Assembly: GCA_002328585.1 (NCBI GenBank)
Contig: DCUV01000060.1
Location: 72,482 to 136,481, forward strand
From: Spirochaetia bacterium UBA2205
GTDB taxonomy: Bacteria; Spirochaetota; UBA4802; UB4802
Length of the DNA stretch: 64,000 nt
Reading direction: 5' to 3'
How positions within the stretch are numbered: the first letter of the stretch is position 1; each line of letters starts with the position of its first letter. The notes under the pieces were generated by a model. The model did no database searches. It saw only the letters and a program-made list of their open reading frames with translations, and had not been told where the DNA came from. Position numbers and translations under genes: made by a program. Shown piece after piece: positions 3,294-61,834 of this stretch.

Positions 3294-4238
3294 ATGGTAC
3301 CTACAGCATATTTGTTTGATCCTGTTTATATGGATCATGATACAGGGTGGGGACATCCTGAGCGCCCTGAGCGCCTGGCGGCAATAGATCAGAAATTACG
3401 TCAGCAACCATACTATAAATCACTGATTAAAGTAGAGCCTAAAATTGGTGCAAAACGATATATTGAGCTGGTACATTCGCCAGATTATGTTAAGCGAGTG
3501 AAAGAAGAGATAGAATCAGGGGTCCACTATCTGGATTCAATGGATACTGCAGTATGCAAAAGGTCATATGAAGTGGCATTGTTAGCTGTAGGTGGCAGCC
3601 TTAATATGTGTGATGCTATAATCTCTGGAGAGGCAATCAGAGGGTTTTGTGCAGCAAGACCTCCGGGACACCATGCTGAGTATGATTATGCGGCAGGTTT
3701 CTGCATTTTTAATAATATTGCAATTGCAGCAAAATATCTCCAGGTAGAACATGGAATAAATAAAATAGCCATTGTTGATTGGGATGTCCATCATGGGAAT
3801 GGTACTCAACACACATTTGAGCGGGATAGAAATGTATTGTATATTAGTACACATCAGTACCCACATTTTCCAGGAACGGGAGCTCGTAGTGAACGGGGAA
3901 AAGGGGAAGGTGAAGGGTATACATTGAATTTTCCTATGCCTGCAGGGAGTGGTGATCCTGAATATATGGATGTGTTTGAAAATCATATTGTTCCGGCACT
4001 TATGAAGTTTGAACCTGAAATAGTTTTAATATCAGCAGGTTTTGATGCGCACAATGCTGATCCTTTATCATACATAGGACTTTCCACTGAAGCATACTAC
4101 AAATTTACGGTGCTTATCAAGCAAGCTGCTAATGAGTACAGTGGCGGAAGAATGATTGCCTTTTTAGAAGGCGGCTATGATTTAGAAGCTTTAGCCAACA
4201 GTGTAGATATGATGATGAGAGCATTCATTGAGGATTAA
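3294..4238 (+). CDS. Histone deacetylase-family protein (acetoin utilisation AcuC / deacetylase superfamily)
   Basis: HDAC signature motifs (DWDVHHGNGTQ, charge-relay His pair RPPGHHA, zinc ligands D..H..D, GGGY). Confidence 0.8.
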   Translation: MVPTAYLFDPVYMDHDTGWGHPERPERLAAIDQKLRQQPYYKSLIKVEPKIGAKRYIELVHSPDYVKRVKEEIESGVHYLDSMDTAVCKRSYEVALLAVGGSLNMCDAIISGEAIRGFCAARPPGHHAEYDYAAGFCIFNNIAIAAKYLQVEHGINKIAIVDWDVHHGNGTQHTFERDRNVLYISTHQYPHFPGTGARSERGKGEGEGYTLNFPMPAGSGDPEYMDVFENHIVPALMKFEPEIVLISAGFDAHNADPLSYIGLSTEAYYKFTVLIKQAANEYSGGRMIAFLEGGYDLEALANSVDMMMRAFIED

Positions 4239-11744: not shown

Positions 11745-11950
11745 TTGAGGAGTTATCCATAGCCCGTCCAGGGCAACCAATAAAGGATGAAAATAGTTGG
11801 CGACAGCCATCCTGAATAACCCCTTGAAGTGGTTTCAGGATATCATTTAATTGTTTGGATTCTGGAGCAGGTCTGGAATGACAAAGGTGGCAAGAGTAGA
11901 TTTCGGGTTACGCCCGGAATGACAGTAGTGCATATTTCTATTTTCGGAGG
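11745..11950 (+). repeat. Copy B of the dispersed intergenic repeat. Its 3' end (TCTATTTTCGGAGG) supplies the leuS Shine-Dalgarno sequence.
   Basis: A CCTGAATAAC..TTCAGGAT hairpin, two GGAATGACA sub-repeats, and a conserved ~78-nt 3' module shared with copies C and D. Preceded by a partial extra 3' end (TTTTTTGAGGAGTTAT). Confidence 0.6.
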
Positions 11951-11959
11951 ACTTAAACA

Positions 11960-14425
11960 ATGTCAGAAGCTGAATATAATCCAAAAAAGATTGAAAAGAA
12001 GTGGCATGAACGATGGGATGAATCATTTATATTTCAATCGAAAAAAGATACTGACAGGAATAAGTATTATATATTAGAAATGTTTCCCTATCCTTCAGGG
12101 AGAATACATATGGGTCATGTTCGAAACTACTCTATTGGGGATGTTGTTGCACGATATAAACGTATGCAGGGATTTAATGTATTTCATCCTATGGGTTGGG
12201 ATGCTTTTGGTCTGCCCGCTGAAAATGCAGCTATCAAACATGGCATACCCCCTAAAAAATGGACCGACGATAACATTGATTATATGAAGAAACAGTTTAA
12301 AATGTTAGGTTATTCGTATGATTGGAACAGAGAAATTGCCACTCATACTCCAGAATATTATAAATGGAATCAATATATATTTATTAAGATGTATGAGAAG
12401 GGACTTGCCTATAAGCGTAAAGCTCCGGTCAACTGGTGTCCTACTTGCAATACGGTTCTGGCAAATGAACAGGTTGAAAATGGAGTGTGCTGGAGATGTG
12501 AAACACAGGTTACACAGCGTGAGTTAGAGCAATGGTTTTTTAAGATTACTGATTATGCTGAAGATCTATTAGCGGGACATGAAATATTAAAAGAAGGTTG
12601 GCCTGAGCGTGTAATAGTTATGCAACACAACTGGATAGGGCGTTCTACTGGACTTATTGTCAATTTCAAGGTAGCTGATACTGGTGAAGATTTTCCAATT
12701 TTTACCACACGCCCGGATACCATCTATGGTGTTACCTTTATGGTGATAGCTCCCGAGCATCCATTCCTTGAAAGGGTAAAAGATCAGAAGGTAAAAGATT
12801 TTATAAGGCAGATTAAAGCACAATCACTTATTGAACGCCTTTCAGAGGAAAAAGAAAAAGAAGGTATCGATACCGGTATTAAAATCATTAATCCTTTTAA
12901 TGGTGATATTGTGCCTCTGTATGTTGGTAATTTTGTTCTTATGGAATATGGAACAGGTGCGATTATGGCAGTACCTGCTCATGATACTCGTGACTTTGCC
13001 TTTGCTAAAAAATATACCATCCCTATTAAGGTTGTAATAGATAATCCTCAACATCCTGTTGATAGCAACACGATGAAAGATGCTTATATAGATGATGGAA
13101 TATGTGTTAATTCGGGACCATTTACAGGTTTGCATAATAGAGATGCCATCGAAGCAATAGCCGATTATGCAGAAAAAGAAGGCATAGGAAAAAGGAAAAT
13201 AAATTACAGGTTAAAGGATTGGCTCATTTCACGGCAGCGATACTGGGGATGTCCTATCCCCATTGTATATTGTGATAAGTGTGGTGCTCATCCCGTTGAC
13301 TATAAGGATTTACCTGTTATTTTGCCGGTAGATGTTGACTTCCACGGAGATTCTCGTTCACCGCTTACCATGATGCCTGAATTTTATAATGCTACATGCC
13401 CAGTTTGTGGTGGAAGTGCTCAACGCGAAACGGATACTATGGACACATTTGTGGATTCATCATGGTATTTTGCTAAGTTTACTTCGCCACATTCTACAGA
13501 GATATTTGATTTTGATGAGGTAAATTATTGGACACCTGTTGATCAGTACATTGGCGGGATTGAACATGCATGTATGCATCTTCTGTATGCACGATTCTTT
13601 ACCATGGTTTTGAATGATTTAGGATTACTACAGTATCGCGAACCATTTACACGGTTGTTGACGCAGGGGATGGTCATTAAAGATGGCGCCAAGATGAGTA
13701 AATCAAAGGGGAATGTTGTCGACCCGGATGATATTATCGATAAATATGGTGCTGATACAGTGCGTTTGTTCATGCTTTTTGCTGCTCCACCCGATAAAGA
13801 TCTGGACTGGTCAGATAAAGGAGTGGATGGGTGCTATAGATTTGTTAATAGAGTGTGGCGTATAATACAGAAGTATAGTGATTGTTATACCACATATAAT
13901 TTTGATACTATTGTGTTAGATAGTTCTCTGAAAAACTTAAGGAATGAAATCCACAGAACAGTTAAAGCTGTTACTCATGATATTGAAGATAGAATGCAAT
14001 TTAATACAGCTATCGCACGAATGATGGAACTTGTCAATGCACTCTATCTGGCAGATGAAACTCTGATACAAACTGACAGGGGCAAAATGGTTGTATCCGA
14101 ACTTTTTGACAAGCTTTTACCCATGTTAGGACCATTTATACCCCATGTTGCGGAGGAGTTATGGGAGCTATTAGGGCATAAGGATTTTATCGTCAATGCA
14201 GCATGGCCAGACTATATTGAAGAATTAACTACGAAAGAAGAGATAGAATTAGTTTTTCAAATTAATGGGAAGATACGGTCAAAGTGTAATGTAGCTGCAA
14301 ACATAACAAGAGAAGCAATGGAAAATGCCGCGCTGGAAGATGATAGAATAAAAGAAATGATTGCAGGGAAAACTGTTAAAAAGGTTATAGTAGTTCCTGG
14401 TAAACTGGTAAATATTGTTATATAA
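11960..14425 (+). CDS. leuS: Leucine--tRNA ligase
   Basis: HMGH and KMSKS class I motifs, editing domain, 821 aa with a typical LeuS N-terminus. Confidence 0.95.
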   Translation: MSEAEYNPKKIEKKWHERWDESFIFQSKKDTDRNKYYILEMFPYPSGRIHMGHVRNYSIGDVVARYKRMQGFNVFHPMGWDAFGLPAENAAIKHGIPPKKWTDDNIDYMKKQFKMLGYSYDWNREIATHTPEYYKWNQYIFIKMYEKGLAYKRKAPVNWCPTCNTVLANEQVENGVCWRCETQVTQRELEQWFFKITDYAEDLLAGHEILKEGWPERVIVMQHNWIGRSTGLIVNFKVADTGEDFPIFTTRPDTIYGVTFMVIAPEHPFLERVKDQKVKDFIRQIKAQSLIERLSEEKEKEGIDTGIKIINPFNGDIVPLYVGNFVLMEYGTGAIMAVPAHDTRDFAFAKKYTIPIKVVIDNPQHPVDSNTMKDAYIDDGICVNSGPFTGLHNRDAIEAIADYAEKEGIGKRKINYRLKDWLISRQRYWGCPIPIVYCDKCGAHPVDYKDLPVILPVDVDFHGDSRSPLTMMPEFYNATCPVCGGSAQRETDTMDTFVDSSWYFAKFTSPHSTEIFDFDEVNYWTPVDQYIGGIEHACMHLLYARFFTMVLNDLGLLQYREPFTRLLTQGMVIKDGAKMSKSKGNVVDPDDIIDKYGADTVRLFMLFAAPPDKDLDWSDKGVDGCYRFVNRVWRIIQKYSDCYTTYNFDTIVLDSSLKNLRNEIHRTVKAVTHDIEDRMQFNTAIARMMELVNALYLADETLIQTDRGKMVVSELFDKLLPMLGPFIPHVAEELWELLGHKDFIVNAAWPDYIEELTTKEEIELVFQINGKIRSKCNVAANITREAMENAALEDDRIKEMIAGKTVKKVIVVPGKLVNIVI

Positions 14426-43483: not shown

Positions 43484-45571
43484 ATGTCAGATGTAATAAC
43501 AACAACCCCTCAGTTTATACAGAAACGTGATGGCAGGGTAGTGCCATTTGATATTGAAAAGATCACAGAAGCAATCTTTAAAGCAGCAAAAGCAGTTGGC
43601 GGTACCGATAGGAATGCAGCAGTACATATTGCGGAATCAGTTGTTGATATATTATCCATATTGTATAAGGATAAACATATCCCAACGGTAGAAAATGTTC
43701 AGGATTTAGTTGAAAAGATGCTCATTGAAAAAGGGCATGCTAAGGTAGCCAAAGCATATATCCTCTACCGTGAACAGCACAGAAAGATACGAGAAAGTAA
43801 AGACCTTCTTAATGAAGGCATACAGCTCATTGAAGATTATCTTGACAGGTCAGATTGGCGGGTAAATGAGAATAGCAATATGAGCTATTCTCTTCAGGGA
43901 TTAAATAACCATATTGCTTCTGCAATTACTGCCAAATACTGGCTTGAACGTATTTATCCACCTGAGATACGCGATGCTCATACCAATTGTGAACTGCATC
44001 TTCATGATTTAGGGTTGCTGTCGGCTTACTGTGTAGGCTGGGATCTGCGAGATTTATTATTAACTGGTTTTGGAGGTGTTCCCGGAAAGGTTGAAAGCAG
44101 GCCGGCAAAACATTTCCGAAGCTCATTGGGGCAGATAGTCAATTTTTTTTATACATTACAGGGAGAATCGGCCGGTGCACAGGCATTTGCAAATTTTGAT
44201 ACGTACCTTGCGCCATTTATACGTTATGATAATCTGGATTATGCAGGTGTTAAGCAGTGTCTTCAGGAATTCATCTTTAATATGAACATACCAACTCGTG
44301 TAGGATTCCAGACGCCATTTACCAATGTTACCATGGATCTGACCGTACCTCGCTCAATTGCCAATGAACATGTCATTATTGGTGGAGAATGTATGGATAC
44401 AACCTATGCTGAATTTCAGAAAGAGATGGATATATTTAATACAGCTTTTGCAGAATGTATGTTTGAGGGTGATGCGCGACACCGAATTTTTACATTTCCC
44501 ATACCAACGTATAACATTACAAAAGATTTTGATTGGGATAATCCTTCCATACACCTTTTGTGGGAGATAACATCTAAATATGGTATTCCCTACTTTGCAA
44601 ATTTTGTAAATTCTGATATGGACCCAGACGATGCCCGCTCCATGTGTTGCCGATTAAGGCTTGATAATCGTGAACTGCGAAAACGAGGTGGTGGACTTTT
44701 TGGAGCTAATCCTTTAACGGGAAGTATTGGTGTGGTAACCATCAACATGCCAAGATTAGGGTACCTTTCTAAAACAAAGGATGAATTCCTTGCAAGTTTA
44801 TCACATTTGATGGATGTAGCAAGCAATTCATTGGAGATTAAAAGAAAAGTTTTAGAAAACTTTACCTCTCAAAATCTTTATCCCTATACAAAGTTTTATC
44901 TACGTGACGTATATAAACGATTCAAGAAGTACTGGATAAATCATTTTTCAACAATTGGACTTGTTGGTATGAATGAAGCCTGTTTAAACCTTTTAGGGCA
45001 GGACATTACAACTGATGAAGGGAAAGCTTTCACCGGGGAAGTGCTGGATTTTATGCGCAGTAAAATAGCCAGATATCAGCATGAAACAGGCAATTTATAT
45101 AATCTTGAAGCCACCCCTGCTGAAGGTGTTAGCTATAGGTTTGCTCGACATGATAAAAATAGATTTTTGGACATTATTACTGCTGGTAAGAATGAACCAT
45201 ATTATACAAATTCGATTCATCCACCGGTGGGATATGCTCACGATATATTTGATCTCCTTGACCATCAGGATCAGTTACAAGCAAAGTTTACCGGCGGTAC
45301 TGTTGTTCACTGTTTTATTGGAGAGAAGATTGATGATCCGGAAATGGTAAAAATACTGGTAAAATCAATAGCTTATAACTATCACATACCATATTTTACC
45401 ATTACGCCAACGTTTAGTATTTGCCCTGTTCATGGATATATACCAGGGAATCACACATATTGTCCTTATCCACATACAAAAGAAGAGCTTGAGATGTTTG
45501 GAATAGAAGTCGAAATAAAAGATAGGGAACTATCAAAACCCATAGAGACAACCAATCGGATTGTCTCGTAA
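43484..45571 (+). CDS. nrdD: Anaerobic ribonucleoside-triphosphate reductase NrdD body (ATP-cone plus barrel). It lacks the C-terminal glycyl-radical motif and has a Cys/His-variant zinc ribbon.
   Basis: ATP-cone N-terminus, NrdD core. C-terminus ..SICPVHGYIPGNHTYCPYPH..EIKDRELSKPIETTNRIVS has no RVxGY. ATG after GGGAG. The track ORF starts 126 nt upstream in AT-rich sequence. Confidence 0.85.
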   Translation: MSDVITTTPQFIQKRDGRVVPFDIEKITEAIFKAAKAVGGTDRNAAVHIAESVVDILSILYKDKHIPTVENVQDLVEKMLIEKGHAKVAKAYILYREQHRKIRESKDLLNEGIQLIEDYLDRSDWRVNENSNMSYSLQGLNNHIASAITAKYWLERIYPPEIRDAHTNCELHLHDLGLLSAYCVGWDLRDLLLTGFGGVPGKVESRPAKHFRSSLGQIVNFFYTLQGESAGAQAFANFDTYLAPFIRYDNLDYAGVKQCLQEFIFNMNIPTRVGFQTPFTNVTMDLTVPRSIANEHVIIGGECMDTTYAEFQKEMDIFNTAFAECMFEGDARHRIFTFPIPTYNITKDFDWDNPSIHLLWEITSKYGIPYFANFVNSDMDPDDARSMCCRLRLDNRELRKRGGGLFGANPLTGSIGVVTINMPRLGYLSKTKDEFLASLSHLMDVASNSLEIKRKVLENFTSQNLYPYTKFYLRDVYKRFKKYWINHFSTIGLVGMNEACLNLLGQDITTDEGKAFTGEVLDFMRSKIARYQHETGNLYNLEATPAEGVSYRFARHDKNRFLDIITAGKNEPYYTNSIHPPVGYAHDIFDLLDHQDQLQAKFTGGTVVHCFIGEKIDDPEMVKILVKSIAYNYHIPYFTITPTFSICPVHGYIPGNHTYCPYPHTKEELEMFGIEVEIKDRELSKPIETTNRIVS

Positions 45572-45749
45572 ACGTATATGTTGTTGGATAGATTGTATTT
45601 TAAAGTATTGCTTGACTGTATATTTATTTTTAAAGAGTTGTTGGTGGCTGCATTGCAGTTATGTTAAGGGATAAAAATGGAGTACTATTGTCACTCTGAA
45701 CAAAGTGAAGGATCTCGTCGTTTTATGAAAGATAGATTCTTTAGGAGTG

Positions 45750-45935
45750 TGTATCTCAGAATGACAGCGTGGGGCGTGTTATCCTGAATAATGTCCTGAA
45801 TTGGCTTCAGGATCATTTCAGGATAACAGTTACAAATTTGGATTCCTGAACAGGTCAGGATTGACAAAAGTGGCAAAAGAGATTCCTGGTCAAGTCCAGA
45901 ATGACATTGGCACATAAATCTATTTTCGGAGGGGG
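45750..45935 (+). repeat. Copy C of the dispersed intergenic repeat, between the nrdD body and the glycyl-radical ORF
   Basis: GTTATCCTGAA ... TTCAGGATAAC nested hairpins, a TTGACAAAAGTGGCAAAAGAGATTCC module, and 3' end GAATGACATTGGCACATAAATCTATTTTCGGAGG 9 nt before the ATG. Confidence 0.6.
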
Positions 45936-45942
45936 TTCTGAT

Positions 45943-46132
45943 GCAAAGAAATACTGAAAAGAAAATACCCGTCGAGGTATATTCCCGTGTTGTTGGTTAT
46001 TTCCGACCGGTGAATCAATGGAATAAAGGCAAGCAGGAAGAGTTCCATGAAAGAAAGGAATTCATGGCAAAAGAATTATTGAAGGTTGTAGATCATGAAT
46101 ATTCGGGGTATACAGAAAACATCACTCATTGA
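45943..46132 (+). CDS. Stand-alone NrdD glycyl-radical domain fragment (63 aa)
   Basis: ..VEVYSRVVGYFRPVNQWNKGKQEEFHERKEF matches the class III RNR glycyl-radical signature (RVxGY..WNxGKxxEfxdR). Own SD from the repeat. Overlaps the nrdG start by 38 nt. Confidence 0.7.
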
Positions 46133-46790
46133 TTATCCGGGCGCTATTAGTACAGTACTTTTTACTGGTGGATGTAATTTGCGGTGTAGTTATTGTCATA
46201 ATCCATCATTAGTATATAATGATTGTAACTTACACTATTATTCAAATGAAGAAGTAATTGATCTTTTACGAAGCAGAAAACATCTCATCGGGGCAGTAGT
46301 ACTGACAGGTGGTGAACCAACGATTGCAAAAGGGATACTGCAATTTCTTGAAAATATTAAATCGCTGGGAATGAAAATTAAATTAGACACCAACGGCTTC
46401 CAGCCTGATATTCTAAAAAAAATTATAATAGAAAATCTTGTTGATTATGTTGCAATAGACATAAAGACATCTCCTCAAAAATATTCACTTTTAACAAAAA
46501 CAAAGTTATCGTTTAATTGTATCAAAGAATCTATTAGTTTGCTTAAAGATCATGATATCCAATTTGAGGTGCGCACCACCTGTGTGCCAGAATTTGTAAC
46601 ATTACAAGATTTACAGAGCATTAAAGAACAGATTGGGCAGGTATCCCATTATTATTTACAGCAATTTAACAATGATAACACAATGGATGAAGCCTTACAC
46701 AGAGTAAAACCTTATCCACAAGAAATATTATTATTGTTCCGCCAATTTGTGCAAACCTTTGCCACTTACTGTGACATCAGAGGGTTATAA
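46095..46790 (+). CDS. nrdG: Anaerobic ribonucleotide reductase activating protein (radical SAM)
   Basis: ..DYPGAISTVLFTGGCNLRCSYCHNP.. motif. Confidence 0.85.
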   Translation: MNIRGIQKTSLIDYPGAISTVLFTGGCNLRCSYCHNPSLVYNDCNLHYYSNEEVIDLLRSRKHLIGAVVLTGGEPTIAKGILQFLENIKSLGMKIKLDTNGFQPDILKKIIIENLVDYVAIDIKTSPQKYSLLTKTKLSFNCIKESISLLKDHDIQFEVRTTCVPEFVTLQDLQSIKEQIGQVSHYYLQQFNNDNTMDEALHRVKPYPQEILLLFRQFVQTFATYCDIRGL

Positions 46791-58395: not shown

Positions 58396-58532
58396 GTTGT
58401 CGATGGACGGCGTTGTGGGCTCACCCGCAGGGGATGAAAATTCCGTGTTAAGCCCGGAATGACGAATGTGAAAAAAGAGATTCCGCACAAAGTCTGGAAT
58501 GACATTGACACATAATTCTATTTTTTGAGGAA
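58396..58532 (+). repeat. Copy D of the dispersed intergenic repeat (orphan, no downstream gene within about 180 bp)
   Basis: CCCGGAATGACGAATGTGAAAAAAGAGATTCCGCACAAAGTCTGGAATGACATTGACACATAATTCTATTTTTTGAGG. Followed by hairpin ATGCTCTTT-tgggtgggg-AAGGAGCAT. Confidence 0.55.
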
Positions 58533-60491: not shown

Positions 60492-60640
60492 ATCTTATCA
60501 AGAGTGGTAGAGGGACTGGCCCTGTGAAACCACGGCAACCGGGATGAAAAAGGCCGGTGCCAATTCCAGCGGAAGATATTCCGGGAGATGAGATAGCAAT
60601 AAGTATCCGCTTATAGGTTCTTCCGGTAAGCGGTTTTTTT
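60492..60640 (+). ncRNA. SAM-I (S-box) riboswitch with downstream terminator hairpin, 5' of metX-metW
   Basis: TCTTATCAAGAGTGGTAGAGGGACTGGCCCTGTGAAACCACGGCAACC...GGTGCCAATTCCAGCGGAAG...GAGATGAGA matches the SAM-I consensus. Expression platform is a CCGCTTA..TAAGCGG hairpin plus T7. Confidence 0.9.
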
Positions 60641-60670: not shown

Positions 60671-61834
60671 ATGAAAGCGGAGATAATACCTGAAAATTCG
60701 GCTGGTATCGTTACCACTAATTATTATACTTTTGCTGAGCCACCTGATGAATTGTTATTGGTTTCAGGGAAAAAACTTGGGCCAATAACATTAGCCTACG
60801 AAACATACGGTACTCTTAACAGTGACAAAAGTAATGCCATATTAATACTTCATGCCCTTTCAGGTTCAGCTCATGCTGCAGGGTATCATGCAAAAAAAGA
60901 TATGTATCCAGGGTGGTGGGATAATTATGTTGGTCCCGGTAAAACTTTTGATACATCACACTATTTTATTATTTGTTCCAATGTTATTGGCGGATGTAGC
61001 GGGTCAACCGGCCCATCATCCATTAATCCTGAAACGGGAAAAGAATATGGTTTGGATTTTCCCATTGTCACTATTCAGGATATGGTAAATGCGCAATATC
61101 ATTTAATTAAATTTTTTGGGATACAAAAGCTTTTATCAGTTGTTGGAGGTTCAATGGGTGGGATGCAGGCATTGCAATGGTCAATATCATATCCTGATAT
61201 GGTGCAGTCTGTGGTAGCAATTGCAACGGCAGCGTCTCTTTCAGCACAGGGGATTGCCTTCAATGAAGTTGGCAGACAGGCAATTATGCTTGATCCCAAC
61301 TGGAATTATGGAGATTATTATAACAATGAAAATCCTAAGAATGGACTATCGCTTGCACGTATGATTGGACATATCACCTACCTGAGCGAGAAGCTTATGC
61401 ATGAAAAATTTGGCAGAAGATTGCAACATTCAGATATTTTTAAATTTCACATGGATCTTGAGTTTGAAGTTGAGTCATACCTTCACCATAAAGGGAATGA
61501 TTTTGTTCAGAGATTTGATGCAAACTCATATTTATATATCACAAAAGCCATTGACTATTTTGATTTAAAGAATGATTTTAATGGTGATCTGGCTAACGCT
61601 TTTGTTAATGTAAATTCTAATTACCTTGTTATAAGTTTTTCTTCTGACTGGTTATACCCGACTTCACAATCGCGGGAGATTGTTAGAGCATTGCGTATGA
61701 ACAGCAAAAATGTTATTTTTACCGAAATACAGAGTGATAAAGGGCATGATACATTTCTGCTGCCCCATGAACAATTAGAGCACAATATAGCTAATTTTTT
61801 AAAACGGGAGTTTGAAAAGGTTCACAGGAAATGA
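60671..61834 (+). CDS. metX: Homoserine O-acetyltransferase
   Basis: Alpha/beta hydrolase with the nucleophile elbow GGSMGG and a typical MetX N-terminus (..[31 protein letters not shown]..). Confidence 0.9.

Follow-up and report, generated by a model that had tools for sequence, protein, structure and literature searches.

A class III ribonucleotide reductase of Spirochaetota apparently made of two polypeptides, with the glycyl-radical loop on a separate small protein

How might an anaerobic ribonucleotide reductase operate when the catalytic chain encoded by its gene ends before the loop that should carry the radical? This question is raised by a 64,000-nucleotide stretch of the genome of Spirochaetia bacterium UBA2205 (assembly GCA_002328585.1, contig DCUV01000060.1, positions 72,482 to 136,481), here called the window, in which an nrdD gene for a class III (anaerobic) ribonucleotide reductase (RNR) lacks the glycyl-radical motif, and a separate open reading frame (ORF) of 63 amino acids (aa) that contains this motif stands between it and the activase gene nrdG. 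We interpret the locus as encoding a native, obligate two-polypeptide class III RNR, a reading to which we assign a probability of roughly 85%; with no radical loop in the body, the small protein would be obligate and not a spare. In every respect tested by sequence comparison the locus is a class III RNR, save that the radical motif lies off the catalytic chain and that its zinc site, a variant, is putative. Its parts are as follows.

43484-45571, plus strand: nrdD body, 695 aa, with ATP-cone, catalytic barrel and putative zinc site, without a glycyl-radical loop
45422-45475, plus strand: variant zinc-site motif CPVH-x9-CPYPH (Cys647..His664), putatively metal-binding
45512-45568, plus strand: C-terminal tail, the last 19 aa of the body (EIKDRELSKPIETTNRIVS), with homologous tails of 0-20 aa in relatives
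45572-45940, plus strand: spacer of 369 nt from body to small ORF, enlarged by hairpin-rich repeats
45781-45932, plus strand: copy of a dispersed intergenic repeat, which terminates ..TCTATTTTCGGAGG and provides the Shine-Dalgarno (SD) sequence
45941-46132, plus strand: gene of the small glycyl-radical subunit, 63 aa, with the predicted radical glycine Gly19 at codon 45995-45997
46095-46790, plus strand: nrdG activase (radical S-adenosylmethionine protein), 231 aa, overlapping the small ORF by 38 nt

That the 695-aa ORF is an NrdD devoid of the radical motif had been reported in the original prediction, and its translation and profile matches agree on this point. The C-terminus reads ..CPVHGYIPGNHTYCPYPHTKEELEMFGIEVEIKDRELSKPIETTNRIVS up to the stop codon (also given as ..TPTFSICPVHGYIPGNHTYCPYPHTKEELEMFGIEVEIKDRELSKPIETTNRIVS), with no SRxxGY motif. 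In profile searches the ATP-cone PF03477 occupies residues 11-100 and the NRDD family PF13597 residues 129-669, the latter at 598 bits (cut-off 26) and over profile positions 1-533 of 562; NF006126 is matched at 1047 bits (cut-off 548) over positions 4-653 of 684, and TIGR02487 at 511 bits (cut-off 326). The small ORF begins MQRNTEKKIPVEVYSRVVGYFRPVNQWNKGKQEEFHERKEF.. and carries the RVVGY core of the SRVVGY motif; its sole Pfam match is to positions 532-562 of PF13597, and it matches positions 651-683 of NF006126. Body and small ORF together tile the full-length NrdD profiles with a gap or overlap of at most 3 positions, and the small ORF aligns to residues 610-644 of Thermotoga maritima NrdD, including the radical glycine Gly621. 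Neither Pfam nor NCBIfam holds a model dedicated to the small protein, which matches only the last 30 positions of NrdD models and falls far under the NCBIfam whole-protein cut-offs. Within the body, the putative finger loop SMCCRLR (Cys388/389, residue 388) aligns with MGCRTRV of Prevotella copri NrdD, an enzyme in which Cys416 partners Gly711. The putative zinc ligands follow the pattern CxxH-x9-CPxxH in all 119 complete close homologues, compared with CPxH-x9-CPxC in fused relatives; known NrdD zinc sites are of the forms CxxCx14CxxC and CxxxHx6CxxC, the second being that of T. maritima.

The arrangement downstream is also as first described. The small ORF directly follows a repeat copy (45858-45932) and uses the GGAGG within it, at 45928-45932 and 8 nt 5' of the ATG, and its end overlaps nrdG, the ATG of which lies 38 nt inside the small ORF; this overlap is kept in loci L016, L017 and L018. 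The activase ORF matches TIGR02495 (NrdG2) at 204 bits against a cut-off of 131 and contains the motif CNLRCSYC. Candidate marker peptides for the proteins of the locus are VVGYFRPVNQWNK and IPVEVYSR.

One explanation of this layout, a specific form of the split by a mobile element that the original prediction had entertained, is that a recent insertion of a repeat resembling a miniature inverted-repeat transposable element, flanked by a 5-bp GTCGA duplication, split an intact nrdD and by chance supplied an SD sequence and an ATG. A dispersed repeat ending in GGAGG does stand directly 5' of the small ORF, GTCGA does occur at 45509-45513 and again at 45971-45975, and the spacer is unusually long in this species. 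Comparison with relatives argues strongly in the other direction. In repeat-free relatives the break is at the same point, the spacer measures 24-105 nt and the small ORF has an SD sequence of its own. An uninterrupted nrdD, which had been suggested as something to look for at orthologous loci, was found in none of the close homologues, whose bodies all lack the radical motif. The 120 body homologues among the matches listed are from Spirochaetota, 74-81% identical and nearly all 675-713 aa long, and SRxxG[YF]xRP occurs in none of these closest homologues; the 119 that are complete all terminate 37-55 residues past the start of the zinc motif, at the same place as the window body. Hence, as had been proposed, the body stops just before the radical domain, a point on which the tiling of profiles and the shared ends concur. 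The supposed element would have to include both the 19-aa tail and the N-terminus of the small ORF, yet relatives have homologous counterparts of each; the tail EIKDRELSK..RIVS resembles their tails PIKDSDYNTKMAI and PVNSDNNIREKIS, and is therefore not derived from an element. The GTCGA pair was correctly observed but is not a target-site duplication. Its two copies are read as GAA-GTC-GAA and CCC-GTC-GAG, and L018, the nearest species representative, has the same residues in other codons and GTCGA at neither site; judged from these codons, its recurrence at the two junctions is a coincidence. Nor does the exact join of MFGIEV to YSRVVGY, once thought to restore a canonical C-terminus, survive comparison, since fused relatives of this subtype with the CPxxH..EL..G extension (L026, reading ..CPHEHTEAQIEKWGAKREKETVIPCEVFSRVVGY, as well as L077 and L044) have a longer linker. 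We thus regard splitting by a mobile element as very improbable, and on these sequence comparisons the split is old and family-wide in this clade of Spirochaetota.

What, then, did the repeat contribute? Its family, D1, has copies at 11876-11950, 45858-45932 and 58456-58530, and homology of the segment 45781-45932 extends to the copy upstream of leuS, at about 11790-11950. The repeat is made of GATTCCTGnnCAnGTCCAGAATGACA-type hairpins and its end reads ..TCTATTTTCGGAGG; two of the three copies lend their GGAGG as SD sequence to the gene that follows, leuS at 11960 in one case and the small nrdD ORF at 45941 in the other. All 14 loci read from this species and close strains retain the long spacer (365-369 nt as extracted), while in 31 other split loci the gap has a median of 29 nt and extremes of -23 nt, an overlap, and 179 nt. 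Spacers of 45 nt in L016 and 105 nt in L017 separate genes in the same order of body, small ORF and nrdG, and that of L018 is a repeat-free 24 nt (..TAAgttttataaaaagggagttttatcATG..) with its own SD sequence, AAGGGAG. Since repeat-free relatives have short spacers, the repeat only enlarged one that already existed; by this comparison, it is an addition that expanded an older intergenic spacer and donated an SD sequence. The folding z-score of the spacer RNA is -3.4. No Rfam family was found for spacer or repeat at the gathering threshold over the whole window or at E<=10 over 45350-46150, the latter scan giving noise-level microRNA matches only. A scan for promoters and terminators found no plus-strand site resembling either in the spacer; over the whole region promoter-like counts equalled those of shuffled sequence. 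Over the last codons of the nrdD body lies a perfect 9-bp inverted repeat (GAGACAACC aatcg GGTTGTCTC, 45545-45567), which scored as terminator-like on the minus strand only.

Could the split instead be an artefact of assembly or sequencing? The window apparently derives from a metagenome-assembled genome (MAG), a source in which such errors might be suspected, but indexes of independent assemblies in four repositories (ENA, JGI, NCBI and Logan), produced by different assemblers, contain the identical 63-aa protein in 277 blocks, and every locus that was read has the same three-gene layout. The split is present also in isolate genomes, namely that of Thermodesulfatator autotrophicus S606 (L054) and that of T. 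indicus DSM 15286, whose 58-aa homologue Thein_0123 is named "hypothetical" or "anaerobic ribonucleoside-triphosphate reductase", and a stop-rich spacer of 369 nt is incompatible with a frameshift error. These independent assemblies favor a real split, and an artefact is the least probable of the explanations weighed here, with next to no credence left to it. Gene calls are another matter: those of JGI omit the small ORF in L015 and L014 though the DNA encodes it, and in L014, where the downstream gene seemed to differ, the DNA proved identical to the window and the small ORF merely uncalled.

A real split might still be a stage of decay, the locus being a pseudogene, the 63-aa ORF a relic, and deoxynucleotides coming from another reductase, which may exist outside the 64-kb window. 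Against this, the 695 codons of the body form an intact ORF, 119 homologues with 74-81% identity are just as intact, and start codons, SD sequences and the nrdG overlap are preserved. In the 30-codon core of the small ORF, comparison of the window with each of ten Spirochaetota relatives gives 10-18 synonymous and 1-4 non-synonymous codon changes; over 55 pooled pairs there are 743 synonymous and 175 non-synonymous codon differences, a ratio of about 4:1, indicating that the small ORF is under strong purifying selection. Eight residues (E12, S15, R16, G19, Y20, R22, K31 and R38) are invariant in 79 aligned stand-alone homologues, which cross phyla. The final dozen codons (..YEYxGxTxNI..) are conserved as well, but the same DNA encodes, in another frame, the conserved N-terminus of nrdG, and conservation at the end of the ORF is therefore uninformative on the small protein itself. 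A decaying gene accords poorly with this pattern, and we hold it to be highly unlikely.

An intron, an intein, stop-codon read-through, frameshifting or ribosomal bypass might also unite the two ORFs in a single chain. The nrdD gene of phage T4 carries a group I intron, and in the window body and small ORF share a reading frame. That agreement is not general: only 8 of 32 split loci are in frame, a proportion that looks random, with gaps of -23 to 369 nt that in relatives shrink to 8 nt or become overlaps (-8 and -23 nt). Each small ORF has its own start codon, the body tails (0-20 aa) and small-protein N-termini (~12 aa) are far too short for split inteins, and the Rfam searches of the spacer, at gathering and permissive thresholds alike, detected neither an intron nor another family. 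With frames and gaps varying in this way, recoding, introns and inteins are excluded by the comparison, and a joined chain deserves no more credence than a fortuitous insertion.

The reading that remains, a native enzyme of two polypeptides, lends itself to a specific mechanism. The three genes would be co-transcribed, the small protein being translated from its own SD sequence and ATG, and nrdG being coupled to it through the 38-nt overlap. The body would provide the ATP-cone, the ten-stranded barrel with its finger-loop cysteine, and a zinc site with all four ligands (Cys,His,Cys,His), and the 63-aa protein only the glycine loop and C-terminal tail, that is, the final part of an ordinary NrdD chain. 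NrdG with S-adenosylmethionine would abstract the C-alpha hydrogen from Gly19 of the small protein; the glycine loop would then insert into the barrel beside Cys388/389 and hand the radical over at each turnover, and the resulting complex should operate as other class III reductases do. In NrdD the glycyl-radical region is intrinsically mobile and has to exit the barrel for activation, and a glycine loop held non-covalently is mechanistically plausible. Oxygen cleaves glycyl-radical proteins at the glycine. Two advantages can be imagined: after exposure to oxygen a 7-kDa piece could be replaced instead of an 80-kDa chain, and the activase could reach the glycine without prising a tethered domain from the barrel. 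Of 119 homologous bodies 88 have a net acidic tail, and of 126 small proteins 100 have a net basic N-terminus, a weak and unpaired observation that would fit docking; Lys-rich N-termini are common among small proteins anyway.

How far does this organization extend? A filter-free phmmer search with the 63-aa query against 1.84 billion cluster representatives (E<=0.001) gave 2915 matches, of which the best 150 are all 48-149 aa long (median 61), 145 of them starting with Met; in 126 of the 150 the start of the motif falls in the first 30 residues, with a mean lead of ~12 residues. A scan of one genome per GTDB species yielded 80 loci, and automated classification scored 31 of them as split, with a few more appearing split on inspection and ~40 fused, proportions that are not an unbiased prevalence since resemblance to the query decided which loci were picked. 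Members of the split class come from Leptospirales and other Spirochaetota, Thermodesulfobacteriota, Aquificales, Desulfuromonadales, Anaerolineae, TA06, Verrucomicrobia, Hippea, Patescibacteria and Micrarchaeota. The alternative that had been raised beside insertion, a radical polypeptide that natively stands alone, is thereby upheld, and it is more widespread than could be told from the window. In most split loci nrdG adjoins the small ORF. Several Thermodesulfobacteriota loci (L045, L049, L054, L085) are split without nrdG in the fetched flank, and in L047, a Spirochaetes MAG, a small glycine-loop ORF at 3462-3660 stands without nrdG downstream and without nrdD in the 3.5 kb upstream; the small ORF is thus not always linked to the activase gene.

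Several points weigh against the interpretation of the locus as a working two-part enzyme, or against parts of the argument for it. The finding that there is no second nrdD holds for the 64-kb window. The structured 369-nt spacer departs from the family norm, and less of the small subunit might be made in this species as a result. The selective advantage of the split is speculation. Single-sequence AlphaFold2 prediction of the concatenated pair reached a mean predicted local distance difference test score of 36.5, and the model was discarded. Finally, a neighbor-joining tree of the barrel region places fused forms between six or more groups of split ones, but this tree, on which the notion of recurrent fission draws, has no support values and is indicative only. 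A block alignment of the concatenate, bodies and small proteins made with MAFFT was also rejected; it misplaced the small proteins inside the body (~25% identity, with an "invariant S205").

The positions of the breaks differ, and this supplies evidence independent of the tree. In type A (the window, TA06, Anaerolineae, Thermodesulfobacteriota and Aquificales) CPxxH and the extension ..EELExFG.. precede the end of the body; in type B (Micrarchaeota, some Patescibacteria and Hippea) the body ends after a canonical CPxC..EEIGY; and in type C (Desulfuromonadales, Verrucomicrobia and Lentisphaeria) it stops directly past the third ligand, with ..SCPYNQEGSSP before the stop codon. Three break points imply at least three events, and by this comparison fission looks recurrent, the split having arisen more than once. 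At the start of the type C small protein, MAxKCxxKTEVYSR, a Cys occupies the spacing of the fourth zinc ligand of fused relatives, and the zinc site of these enzymes may be completed in trans, bridging two subunits. Type C breaks were seen in L076, L084, L087, L091 and L092 (Desulfuromonadales) and in L036 and L081, and the small proteins of this type read MAxKCxxKTEVYSRVCGF.., GF replacing GY after the radical glycine.

A further arrangement was noted in MAGs of Patescibacteria and Bdellovibrionales. In L027 (3501-3800), L046 (3501-3800) and L079 (3339-3620) a full-length NrdD that keeps its glycine motif is followed, after 17 nt in L027 and 40 nt in L046, by an ORF of 87-94 aa and then by nrdG. 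This extra ORF combines a zinc ribbon (CxxC..CxxC) with a second, near-identical glycine motif; L057 and L070, likewise from such MAGs, have a small protein of this type with no nrdD nearby. A search with one such protein (P0278) gave 669 homologues, the best 120 of which are all 74-114 aa long and include MNSN_06970 of Minisyncoccus archaeiphilus. From its sequence and setting, the extra protein of Patescibacteria is a candidate spare part for class III RNR, comparable to the GrcA protein discussed below.

These variants invite a more general and more tentative proposal, which we think more likely wrong than right: that a detached glycine loop is a recurrent, selected architecture of class III RNR, a "radical cartridge" that arose independently at no fewer than three break points in bacteria and archaea. 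NrdG would activate the small protein off the enzyme, docking would come afterwards, and the small protein would be swapped after cleavage by oxygen or during release induced by dATP. Three variants would be distinguished: (a) the form in the window, in which the body has a full zinc site; (b) that of Desulfuromonadales and Verrucomicrobia, with the fourth zinc ligand apparently on the small protein; and (c) that of Patescibacteria, with a full-length NrdD and an extra zinc-ribbon/glycine-loop protein. If this were true, the last would be the first GrcA-like spare part outside formate lyases.

How does the two-part enzyme of the window compare with systems already known? With canonical single-chain NrdD and its activase (phage T4, E. 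coli, T. maritima 4COI/4U3E and P. copri 8P23) it has in common the ATP-cone and NRDD barrel, a finger-loop cysteine (by alignment), the SRVVGY motif, a neighboring radical-SAM activase and, ahead of the radical loop, a putative zinc site. It differs from them in that the glycine loop and C-terminal tail are on a separate 63-aa product, and in having CxxH-x9-CPxxH followed by the conserved ..EELExFG.. extension and a short acidic tail. An analogy drawn at the outset was with GrcA/YfiD (and Y06I of phage T4), the spare part of pyruvate formate-lyase (PFL), which is likewise a small, stand-alone protein with a glycyl-radical loop. GrcA has ~127 aa, against 63 here. The analogy holds for function, in that docking into a large partner and activation by the activase of that partner, both proposed here from sequence, would be common to the two. 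It fails for homology, the small ORF being homologous to the C-terminus of NrdD and not to the Gly_radical domain of PFL (its one Pfam match is to NRDD 532-562), and it fails for the spare-part relation as well: GrcA coexists with a PflB that holds its own radical domain, which it replaces only after oxygen damage, whereas the body here has no such loop. Loci L027, L046 and L079 of Patescibacteria, where the partner keeps its radical motif, do show a relation of the GrcA type. Spare-part radical proteins are known solely for formate lyases, according to a 2026 review.

Division of an RNR chain between two genes is not without parallel. The homing endonuclease gene mobE splits the class Ia nrdA of Aeromonas phage Aeh1, and the pieces reassemble into active enzyme; in the window, by contrast, the pieces are not separated by a gene, and the repeat arrived long after the split. 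The split class II enzyme NrdJa/NrdJb (PMC9669993) is likewise encoded by two consecutive genes with a C-terminal functional module on the second, but it is B12-dependent and not split at the radical site. A full-text search found no split NrdD and no autonomous radical protein specific to NrdD in the literature it covered, subscription-only papers lying outside it; the split NrdD thus appears undescribed in the literature searched, and a prior description in subscription-only literature is possible. To our knowledge every characterized glycyl-radical enzyme has its radical glycine on the catalytic chain, and we know of no free-standing radical module other than GrcA. The two-part enzyme, if it is real and always has its glycine loop on a separate protein of 6-7 kDa, would offer a natural system for asking how an activase reaches a glycine buried in the barrel, and would reveal whether a radical can be installed off the enzyme and then delivered, and how such enzymes handle cleavage by oxygen. 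It also bears on annotation: length filters and rules based on C-terminal motifs will misclassify split bodies as truncated or inactive, and many small genes are left out of the gene calls, L014 and L015 being examples, or labeled "hypothetical". Because gene callers often miss the small ORF, protein-level surveys will undercount split systems and report NrdDs that seem to lack the motif.

Two minor observations concern other sequences. Some fused NrdDs are 868-1219 aa long (from stop to stop, some being cut by contig ends) and contain insertions of ~250-400 aa, located at the CC of the finger loop near query residue 388 (L026, L050, L056, L058, L097) or near residue 607 (L043, L078); these are probably inteins at conserved sites. 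Elsewhere in the window, a SAM riboswitch (RF00162, 92.5 bits) lies at 60492-60594 on the plus strand, upstream of an ORF at 60671-61834 that encodes a 387-aa alpha/beta-hydrolase, probably homoserine O-acyltransferase.

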